From Thiobacillus denitrificans (GTDB lineage Bacteria > Pseudomonadota > Gammaproteobacteria > Burkholderiales > Thiobacillaceae): a stretch of 64,000 nt of DNA. The stretch lies in NCBI GenBank assembly GCA_002424845.1, contig DILD01000028.1, positions 17,220 to 81,219 of the forward strand, in the 5' to 3' direction. The notes beneath the pieces were generated by a model. That model was given only the letters and a program-made list of their open reading frames with translations. It did not search any database and had not been told where the DNA came from. Each line of letters begins with the position of its first letter. Positions within the stretch are counted from its first letter, which is position 1. A program made the translations under genes and the position numbers. Shown here piece after piece: positions 9,685-54,880 of this stretch.

Positions 9685-9954
9685 ATGAAATATTCCGTCC
9701 TCCTGGCTGCTCTGCTGGCTGTTTCCATGACCGCTTGCGGCCAAAAAGAAGAAGCTGCCGCGCCTGCTGGCGAAGCTGCTGTCCAAGCCGGCGAAGCTGC
9801 TGTCCAAGCTGGCGAAGCTGCTGTCCAAGCTGGCGAAGCTGCTGCTGATGCTGCTGACGCTGCTGCTCCCGCTGCTGACGCTGCCGCCGCCGCCGCTGGC
9901 GAAGCGGCAACTGCTGCTGGCGCCGCTGCTGACGCTGCTGCTCCTGCCCAGTAA
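9685..9954 (+). CDS. Small Ala-rich lipoprotein
   Basis: MKYSVLLAALLAVSMTA-C lipobox, SD AAGGGA, AGEAAVQ repeats, followed by strong terminator. Confidence 0.85.
   Translation: MKYSVLLAALLAVSMTACGQKEEAAAPAGEAAVQAGEAAVQAGEAAVQAGEAAADAADAAAPAADAAAAAAGEAATAAGAAADAAAPAQ
9766..9843 (+). repeat. 21-bp coding tandem repeat x3.7 (AGEAAVQ)
   Basis: GCTGGCGAAGCTGCTGTCCAA units at 9766, 9787 (one T>C), 9808, partial 9829. Confidence 0.95.
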
Positions 9955-48089: not shown

Positions 48090-48217
48090 AGGATTACGCT
48101 AAGCGAGTTCTCCCTCTGATGGAACGACTAGCCATTCGACTAAGCCCGCAAGCGGGCAAGTCGCTGGTTATCCCCAATCCTCGCCCGCTTGCGGGCGAGG
48201 GAGTCAACGTAATGCCT
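48090..48217 (+). repeat. REP/RPE-like palindromic repeat carrying a nested 54-bp element
   Basis: CCCTCT[insert]CCCCAAT-CCTCGCCCGC-TT-GCGGGCGAGG; flanking IR AGGATTACG/CGTAATGCCT. Confidence 0.75.
48118..48171 (+). mobile_element. 54-bp hairpin mini-element, copy 1 (intergenic)
   Basis: GATGGAACGACTAGCCATTCGACTAAGCCCGCAAGCGGGCAAGTCGCTGGTTAT; 50/54 identical to 54722-54775; mobility is inferred. Confidence 0.7.
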
Positions 48218-48246
48218 TTATGCCCGCAGGGGTACAACCCGATTAA

Positions 48247-53436: not shown

Positions 53437-53906
53437 TTGTGCAGGAACTGCGCGTGACCCATGGCAGGGTCGAGCTGATAGGCCATGAAACCCAACCGCT
53501 GGTACAAGGCACGCGCGGACGTATTGCCGTCCAGTACCTCCAGCGTCAGTTTGCAGGCGTCGCGTTCGCGGGCGATCGCCTCGACCTCGGCAAACAGCAG
53601 TGCCGCGATGCCCCGGCCGCGGTGGCTGGAGGCGACCACTACGTCATGCACGTTGACAAGCGGACGGCAGGTAAACGTGGAAAAGCCCTCGATGGCGTTA
53701 ATCAGTCCGACCGGCGTGTCGCCGTCGAACGCCAGTACGCTGAAAATGAAGGGACGCGCGGCAAGCGCATCGAGCAGATTGACGCGCGCATAGTCGGACA
53801 GCGGTTCGCCGCCGCCCGCCGGATCGCGCATGTAATGATCCATCAGATCGATCAGTGCGGCGGCATGTGCCGGATCGCCGTAATGGGCGCGGACGATTTC
53901 GATCAT
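53424..53906 (-). CDS. GNAT N-acetyltransferase
   Basis: NVHDVVV, HRGRGIA, LEVLDGN..ARALYQRLGF. Confidence 0.9.
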   Translation of the reverse strand: MIEIVRAHYGDPAHAAALIDLMDHYMRDPAGGGEPLSDYARVNLLDALAARPFIFSVLAFDGDTPVGLINAIEGFSTFTCRPLVNVHDVVVASSHRGRGIAALLFAEVEAIARERDACKLTLEVLDGNTSARALYQRLGFMAYQLDPAMGHAQFLHKWLD

Positions 53907-54880
53907 TCGATGCGCATCGACAGGTCCACCGCGCGAATATGCTTGGTGAGGCTGCCGATGGAAATGCGATCGACGCCGGTTTCGGCCACCGCGCGCACCG
54001 TTTCCAGCGTGATGTTGCCGGAGGCTTCGAGCAGGGCGCGGCCATGGGTGACTTGCACCGCGTGGCGCAGGTCGGCGAGACTGAAGTTGTCGAGCAAGAT
54101 GAGCGGTGCGCCGGCGCTCAGGGCCTGTTCGAGTTCGTCGATATTTTCCACCTCGATCTGCACGCTGACTTTGTCCTCTGCCAGCCGGAACGCCGCTTCC
54201 AGCACCTCCGCGATGCCGCCTGCCGCCGCGATGTGGTTTTCCTTGATCAGGATGCCGTCGTACAGGCCCACGCGTTGATTCTGCCCGCCGCCCACCCGCA
54301 CCGCGTATTTCTCGGCGATGCGCAGGCCGGGCAGGGTTTTTCGGGTATCCAGAATCGCCGCATGGGTGCCGCGCACGGCCTCGACATAGGGCCGGGTGGC
54401 GGTGGCCACCGCCGACAGGGTTTGCAGGAAATTCAGCGCCGGGCGTTCGGCGGTCAGCAGCGCGCGCGCATTGCCGTGGATGTCGGCCAGCACGTCGCCG
54501 GCCGCCACGGTGTCGCCCTCGTTGACCCGCCACTCGATGGCGCAACCGAGGTCGAGCGCCTTGAAACAGGCGTCGAACCAGGGCCGGCCGGCGATCACCG
54601 CGGTTTCGCGGGTGATGACGCGGGCGCGGGCGGTTTGCATCTGGGGGATGAGCCGGGCGGTGAGGTCATTAATCGCCTTGGGCGCGCGCAACGCATCGTT
54701 CGCCCCCTCCCCCTTGAGGGGGTAACCAGCGACTTGTCCGCTTGCGGGCTTAGTCGAATGACTAGTAGTTCCATCAGAGGGCTGGGGAGAGGGTGAAGCC
54801 CCTTCGCGCGGCCCTATCAGGTCTTCTTCCAGTGCGCGCGCGACGTCGGATAAAACCTGATCTACATTCAATTCAGACAT
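53903..54880 (-). CDS. nadC: Quinolinate phosphoribosyltransferase with ~47-aa repeat-derived insertion
   Basis: ER.ALNF, DTRKT.PGLR, LIKENH, EVE, LLDN, EASG, IS.G.LT; insertion between EEDL and DLTA. Confidence 0.96.
   Translation of the reverse strand: MSELNVDQVLSDVARALEEDLIGPREGASPSPQPSDGTTSHSTKPASGQVAGYPLKGEGANDALRAPKAINDLTARLIPQMQTARARVITRETAVIAGRPWFDACFKALDLGCAIEWRVNEGDTVAAGDVLADIHGNARALLTAERPALNFLQTLSAVATATRPYVEAVRGTHAAILDTRKTLPGLRIAEKYAVRVGGGQNQRVGLYDGILIKENHIAAAGGIAEVLEAAFRLAEDKVSVQIEVENIDELEQALSAGAPLILLDNFSLADLRHAVQVTHGRALLEASGNITLETVRAVAETGVDRISIGSLTKHIRAVDLSMRIE
54668..54817 (-). repeat. In-frame REP/RPE-like palindrome insertion in nadC
   Basis: CCCTCTCCCCAGCCCTCT[insert]CCCCTCAAGGGGGAGGG encoding PSPQPS...PLKGEG. 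Confidence 0.85.
54722..54775 (-). mobile_element. 54-bp hairpin mini-element, copy 2 (coding, DGTTSHSTKPASGQVAGY)
   Basis: GATGGAACTACTAGTCATTCGACTAAGCCCGCAAGCGGACAAGTCGCTGGTTAC on minus strand; mobility is inferred. Confidence 0.7.

Follow-up and report, generated by a model that had tools for sequence, protein, structure and literature searches.

The window, that is, the whole 64,000-nt stretch of DNA analysed here, belongs to a metagenome-assembled genome of Thiobacillus denitrificans (G000; other G-numbers denote the compared genomes) that is 75% complete and divided into 97 contigs. Its minus strand carries an intact nadC gene interrupted in frame by a composite repeat, which consists of an element A and, nested in it, an element B; a second composite of the two lies in the spacer between nadE and glnB on the plus strand.

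53903-54880, minus strand: nadC (quinolinate phosphoribosyltransferase), 325 aa, intact; assigned from the open reading frame, Pfam, PDB 3gnn and orthologues
54668-54817, minus strand: in-frame composite repeat insert of 150 nt, residues 22-71, between the N-terminal helix and QRPTase_N
54777-54817, minus strand: part of element A that is upstream in the coding sense; outer arm and C-rich hairpin half, encoding IGPREGASPSPQPS
54723-54776, minus strand: element B, a 54-nt hairpin nested in A, encoding DGTTSHSTKPASGQVAGY
54668-54722, minus strand: part of element A that is downstream in the coding sense; G-rich hairpin half and TTAAY-ending arm, encoding PLKGEGANDALRAPKAIN
48106-48246, plus strand: composite A+B repeat in the nadE-glnB spacer, with its B copy at 48117-48170, in the sense orientation of the transcript

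The gene product is identified as NadC by both QRPTase domains, QRPTase_N (PF02749) at residues 73-156 (Pfam, 5e-21) and QRPTase_C (PF01729) at residues 158-323 (4e-56), and by a close solved structure, that of Burkholderia NadC (PDB 3gnn, E 6e-94), the closest to the window protein; outside the loop, its identity to 48 Thiobacillus orthologues is 77-90%. A sequence-only reading of this locus had described a 50-residue, repeat-derived loop in a NadC whose frame and enzyme motifs are intact, and both descriptions hold: the loop occupies residues 22-71 of a 325-aa open reading frame that retains the two QRPTase domains, and the repeat at 54718-54781 (64 nt) was found again in the nadE-glnB spacer, where positions 48112-48175 are 94% complementary to it.

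A Pfam scan of residues 22-71 yields no family match. In nadC extracted from 50 Thiobacillus genomes, G000 included, the insert point reads EDV-GSG-DLT in 41; Burkholderia NadC (3gnn) reads AEDVGSGDQT where the window has EDL, 50 residues and DLT, and the pattern ED-x-G-x-G-D-L-T occurs in nearly all of the 64 other betaproteobacterial NadC sequences that were readable from 80 fetched loci. It follows that the 50 residues were inserted in place of a three-residue GSG. The pairwise dN/dS of G000 nadC against its near relatives is 0.15-0.21, compared with 0.17 between insert-free genes, and nadC with the insert remains under ordinary purifying selection. On the opposite strand, a 313-codon open reading frame (53855-54796, plus strand) runs antisense to nadC and reads the repeat in the third open frame. 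Its 42-residue translation across the repeat is matched at 100% by a 187-residue protein of the searched collection that has no recorded source and is therefore taken to be the window's own; the frame looks like a shadow ORF rather than a gene.

In the nadC insert, the 54-nt hairpin B divides a 96-nt palindromic element, A. Excision of B in silico leaves 96 nt that can be aligned, with no break where B had been, to intact A copies of other genes (the G000 nadC copy of A agrees with the LeuS copy of G024 at 92% over 78 nt), and nadC of G065 contains A at the same site and no B. Moreover, the point at which B interrupts A varies from copy to copy, and some copies of B have no flanking A at all. 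One end of A, TTAAY, is constant across all copies examined, and the other is ill-defined; a check of 20 junctions for an extended target motif found enrichment limited to a G (18/20) and then an A (16/20) after TTAAY. Outside the window, the IleS gene of G000 (contig C16, ~469-569) has A in frame and lacks B, and its orthologue in G024 has A+B at that site, as well as a second A+B about 50 codons downstream; the pair is a presence/absence difference of B inside an orthologous A.

A six-frame peptide search recovers 121 copies of B in 27 of the 61 Thiobacillus genomes, and 64 of these copies are read in the same peptide frame within open frames of 250 aa or more; among 251 genomes of the order, B is present in 12, from at least seven families. 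The sequence-only reading had proposed that the peptide be sought in other host proteins, and such hosts proved numerous: in a collection of 5.8 billion proteins, the insert peptide occurs in at least 237. Of 120 proteins that were fetched, 117 local matches contain the B core (STKPA or KPASGQ), most of them reading DGTTSHSTKPASGQVAGY or a close variant. The hosts comprise LeuS, MetG, NadE, UbiB, MurC, MurE, MiaA, TsaE and RlmN, in addition to Mfd, GcvP, GlcD, NifN, MutL, HemD, CusA, MoeA and others, and the named sources of host proteins include Gallionella, Sideroxydans lithotrophicus, Sulfuricella and Ferriphaselus. In MetG, GlcD-like proteins and TsaE from many metagenomic sources, the repeats stand at the same positions as one another, so that recurrent or inherited use of a single site is not peculiar to nadC.

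This spread is strongly confined to one reading frame. The element has three stop-free frames, but the other two give 0 and 1 database matches, respectively, and the single off-frame match is 100% identical to the window translation and has no recorded source. Because an element that is spliced out could sit in any frame, the bias is indirect evidence of translation. The lengths of A and B are both multiples of three, and one of their frames lacks stops and encodes a hydrophilic peptide with much Pro, Ser, Gly and Thr, so that a ribosome would read through them. It is against this background that one has to weigh the suggestion that the insert is missing from the mature product, as a result of removal at the RNA or protein level, of nadC being a pseudogene, or of a mis-assembly. 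An assembly that is 75% complete and broken into 97 contigs lends it some weight, but nine independent assemblies have inserts at the site, and the rest of nadC is under normal purifying selection. Removal, for its part, would not explain why over half of the copies occupy long ORFs in a single stop-free frame, and no dedicated RNA or protein family is recognised: a search against Rfam (E up to 5) with four copy-holding loci of G000, including nadC, returned chance-level matches only, and the insert has no counterpart in Pfam. We consider absence of the loop from the product very improbable; the loop is presumably translated and harmless.

An alignment of the nadC copy of B with 70 further copies from Thiobacillus genomes indicates what the family conserves. 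Across the 71 copies, 96.7% of the stem cells are paired, with compensatory changes at pair 16-51, which swaps between CG and GC in 23 copies, and at pair 18-49, which swaps between AU and GC in 10. Pair 15-52 is G.U in 28 of 68 copies, a pairing that can be formed on the sense strand only; such folding could be a sign that the intermediate is RNA or single-strand DNA. In the peptide, the invariant stretch STKPASGQVA corresponds to the stem, and the variants SH...G and KH...A correspond to the two sides of one compensatory stem change. Since the conserved part of the peptide is stem-encoded and accompanied by compensatory changes, constraint acts on the nucleic-acid hairpin and not on the peptide.

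Within this family, the nadC copy has an impaired stem, as had been noticed from the letters of the two copies: its 54-nt core folds at -11.2 kcal/mol (z -0.13), against -21.1 kcal/mol (z -3.3) for the spacer copy, and it is the only one of 68 copies in which pair 29-40 is unpaired. The arms of A also pair in the fold of the 150-nt insert, with a z-score of only -1.4. The start of B, CUGAUG(A/G), was considered as a hammerhead-like motif and rejected, as it has neither a GAAA box nor an Rfam match. Elsewhere in G000, a B-like hairpin (G000:C56:16923-16964) lies upstream of a DAHP-synthase-like ORF and is conserved in three species (also G010 and G004:C8); its 5' tail is missing, its loop is different and a T-run comes after it. 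A terminator is one possibility for it, kinship with the progenitor of B another.

The loss of stem pairing in nadC bears on a proposal made from the sequence alone, namely that the peptide is conserved while the DNA structure decays, a possible exaptation in which the loop would have gained a role in NadC (regulation, assembly or localisation) and be kept by purifying selection as a useless hairpin deteriorates. Its starting point is sound: every difference between the nadC and spacer copies is synonymous, and all four fall at third positions of nadC codons (54767, ACT/ACG; 54761, AGT/AGC; 54737, GGA/GGG; 54722, TAC/TAT). Yet just two of them can be assigned to the nadC lineage. Position 54722 is outside B (54723-54776), in an arm of A; there the two copies differ because they landed in different places, not because a base was substituted. 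At 54767 any of the four bases may occur in the family, and nadC has the most frequent one (T, 29/70). The changes unique to nadC, found in none of the 70 other copies, are C to T at position 16 of B and G to A at position 40, both of which lie in the stem.

That these two changes are synonymous and stem-weakening, in the one copy that has lost pair 29-40, is in line with exaptation, albeit with n=2; selection that preserves the peptide, or that disfavours an mRNA hairpin, would also yield this combination. The chance of both being synonymous is 0.07, or 0.11 if only transitions are considered. As for the chance of (1/3)^4 originally attached to the four differences, the counts stand but the figure overstates the signal, because codon position 3 carries 41% of the diversity of B in long-ORF copies and 48% in the other copies, and is thus rich in diversity even where B is non-coding. 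Genic copies show no synonymous excess at the level of the family: the ratio of synonymous to non-synonymous changes from the consensus is 34:139 in 39 long-ORF copies and 37:142 in the 31 others (Fisher p=0.89), so that protein-level purifying selection beyond that of non-coding copies, as would mark an exapted insert, is not seen in this comparison.

The A part of the nadC inserts, compared between carriers, has a dN/dS of 0.38-0.91 against 0.15-0.25 for the remaining gene, which amounts to 2-4 times the gene's ratio, although this value is confounded by the dS of the A part, which is below that of the gene, as expected of younger or structure-constrained DNA. The dN/dS across orthologous inserts, to which the exaptation proposal had been tied, speaks against conservation of the peptide in exceeding that of the gene, and in staying below 1 it leaves room for some peptide constraint; that nadC itself is still under purifying selection is in keeping with exaptation. 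Inserts that range from 19 to 74 residues among carriers and are absent from 41 of 50 species count against a role in the enzyme, and so does the predicted structure. An AlphaFold2 model (49 sequences) has a helix at residues 6-22 before the loop, pLDDT values below 50 and no secondary structure at residues 28-66, and a confident fold from ~72 (mean pLDDT after the insert, 81.7); modelling, which had been suggested as a way to locate the loop, hence puts it between helix 6-22 and the folded domains and predicts it to be disordered. Loop length at the insert site also varies naturally among solved NadCs. With two nadC-specific changes, a family test at p=0.89 and this range of dN/dS in A, exaptation of the NadC loop is not supported, and we regard it as improbable.

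The insert is not confined to G000. Family inserts occupy exactly this position, always in one and the same orientation, in 9 of the 50 Thiobacillus nadC genes. When the nadC tree is inferred from the gene minus its loop, eight carriers require seven changes, with the starred branches forcing seven, and all carriers but two pair with an insert-free gene; monophyly of the carriers costs 320 log-likelihood units and is rejected (AU p=1.4e-4). The sequences flanking the insert, 45 nt upstream and 60 nt downstream, track the gene tree and not carrier status, and give no sign of a short recombination patch having carried the insert, a candidate route that was considered and set aside. In the case of G051, the flanks differ from those of a non-carrier sister by 0 and 2 bases, and the genome contains 21 matches to the nadC element where its closest relatives on the nadC tree, G067 and G013, contain none, a contrast that suggests that element A invaded or multiplied in this one species recently. 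Moreover, the G000 nadC element is 88-92% identical to the LeuS and NadE copies of other species and 75-87% identical to other nadC inserts apart from that of G018 (91%), the only nadC insert to which it is not more distant than to those copies, and the stems of the carriers differ from one another by paired changes.

An account in which a single ancient insertion shared by the nine species was followed by repeated precise loss or by short-patch recombination, and in which there is no hot spot, has the junctions on its side. The downstream junction, TTAAY followed by GAC CTN, is common to all nine carriers, and in eight of the nine Leu replaces Val before the insert and GSG is absent, a pattern that very short conversion tracts could explain. 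Four carriers also have in common an outer arm encoding x-GPR-D/E; the GPRE-encoding arm was examined as a nadC-specific feature and rejected as such, for a similar arm is present in LeuS copies, and the argument for common origin drawn from it was therefore dropped. Against a single origin stand the seven or more changes on the nadC tree together with the rejected monophyly, the agreement of both flanks with the gene tree, the near-identity of the G051 flanks to those of a non-carrier along with its 21 copies against none in two sisters, the greater proximity of the G000 element to LeuS/NadE copies than to most nadC inserts, and the paired stem differences between carriers; we judge it unlikely. 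As far as sequence comparison can tell, the nadC inserts in Thiobacillus appear to derive from several independent insertions, certainly more than one, and their recurrence may reflect either targeting or the mere scarcity of permissive sites in NadC.

Three nadC genes deserve separate mention. An uncultured member of the Nitrosomonadales has, at the same EDL...DLT site, an unlike insert of ~22 residues that is Pro-rich and then consists of Arg/Glu repeats; nadC of G057 has a 62-residue insert and an in-frame TAG downstream of it; and nadC of G023 (G023:C1:425481-426033) shows two overlapping match pieces and two TGA codons. The G057 and G023 genes may be pseudogenes or assembly errors.

Likened by description, the known system that A and B most closely resemble is that of the Rickettsia palindromic elements (RPEs). 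In the accounts given in PMC10969869 and PMC3184786, RPEs (Ogata et al. 2000) are palindromic sequences of ~105-150 nt whose mobilisation mechanism is unknown, and the 44 copies of R. conorii lie to nearly half in ORFs, in frame and with a conserved peptide. This analogy, already drawn in the sequence-only reading, fits the repeat described here, which is a multi-copy family, forms a hairpin (as seen from the paired B stem and the fold of the spacer copy), and is read in frame in unrelated housekeeping genes as one conserved peptide. Measured against those descriptions, the two systems share short palindromes (about 100-150 nt), many unrelated housekeeping genes as hosts, insertion that is always in frame, and a conserved peptide judged to be one that the host fold would accommodate, as well as the proportion of copies in ORFs, about half in each (64/121 for B and nearly half of 44 in R. 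conorii). They differ in their hosts, which are free-living sulfur- or iron-oxidising Betaproteobacteria (Thiobacillus, Gallionellaceae, Sulfuricella) for A/B and obligate intracellular Alphaproteobacteria for RPEs; in the two-tier organisation of A/B, where a 54-nt element lands inside the arms of a larger repeat; and in that A/B recur at a single codon position of a single gene, in at least seven lineages. We know of no report of RPEs making recurrent use of one codon position.

REP sequences and REPINs are, like A/B, G+C-rich, multi-copy and lineage-specific hairpins. By definition REPs lie outside genes, and they measure 20-40 nt, whereas more than half of the B copies are intragenic. A further likeness is that of mobile DNA that targets another repeat, as B does in A: insertion sequences use Pseudomonas REPs as landing sites (PMC3184786). 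The transposase associated with such elements was tried as a mobiliser of A/B and rejected, since the Y1 (RAYT) transposase (PF01797), although present in 44 of 61 genomes, shows no correlation with B counts across them; G055, a complete genome whose B copies include some in open frames of 791 and 954 aa, and G066 contain B and no Y1 match, and G010 contains six Y1 matches and no B. By this one test of co-occurrence, A/B are not a REP/RAYT system.

Intragenic MITEs, such as ERIC, the QMITE of Coxiella and the pneumococcal BOX, RUP and SPRITE elements, are similar to A/B in being non-autonomous, small and fused in frame to host ORFs. They differ in that the terminal inverted repeats of A/B are imperfect at best and in that A/B are strongly restricted to one reading frame; to our knowledge, a single-frame restriction is not a general trait of MITEs. 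At four sites that could be compared in filled and empty form (MoeA, an aminotransferase, NadE and IleS) there is no target-site duplication, and a few host codons have been replaced instead of duplicated; A/B are thus not a classical MITE. A GACCT repeat flanking the nadC insert, which had been considered as a target duplication, was rejected because the empty site, EDVGSGDLT, does not fit it.

Taken with the evidence on translation, hairpin constraint and structure, the reading that we prefer, and to which we assign a probability of about 0.8, is that the NadC loop is selfish DNA tolerated by the enzyme. A non-autonomous palindromic A of ~96 nt would have landed in the short surface loop that follows the N-terminal helix of NadC, and the 54-nt hairpin B would later have landed in a G/C-rich arm of A. 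The enzyme would thereby have gained a disordered 50-residue loop and kept its fold, and the similarity of the peptide between copies would reflect the hairpin constraint of the family and recent copying rather than selection on the NadC protein. The nadC copy of B may by now be free of the hairpin constraint, with decay of its stem begun. The results favour, to the extent that sequence and model can speak to it, a loop that is tolerated, translated and disordered.

Whether A and B form an undescribed kind of coding-adapted selfish DNA, distinguished by genic spread in one frame, folding on the sense strand and an independent nadC hot spot in at least seven lineages, is a more tentative matter, to which we would give slightly less than even odds. 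No description of the A/B family was found in the literature on the peptide, on repeats of Thiobacillus and Gallionellaceae or on betaproteobacterial in-frame palindromes, a survey that covered mostly non-subscription journals.

Until now, in-frame palindromic repeats have mostly been regarded as an oddity of Rickettsia and a handful of pathogens; free-living chemolithotrophs show the same behaviour at large scale and with a strict frame bias. The interest of the locus rests on this repeat family and on the recurrent nadC site, not on a new function of NadC. Recurrence in the nadC loop amounts to a natural experiment on which protein sites tolerate 20-75 extra residues, and on whether the insertions are directed to certain sites or are merely those that survive selection. 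For annotation and for inference from sequence, it advises caution: neither conservation of a peptide nor differences that are exclusively synonymous equate to selection at the protein level until the constraints of the repeat family have been removed. Apart from the composite repeats, positions 9751-9942 of the window contain a tandem repeat, probably coding, in which a 21-nt unit rich in GCT and CTG recurs in ten overlapping copies.
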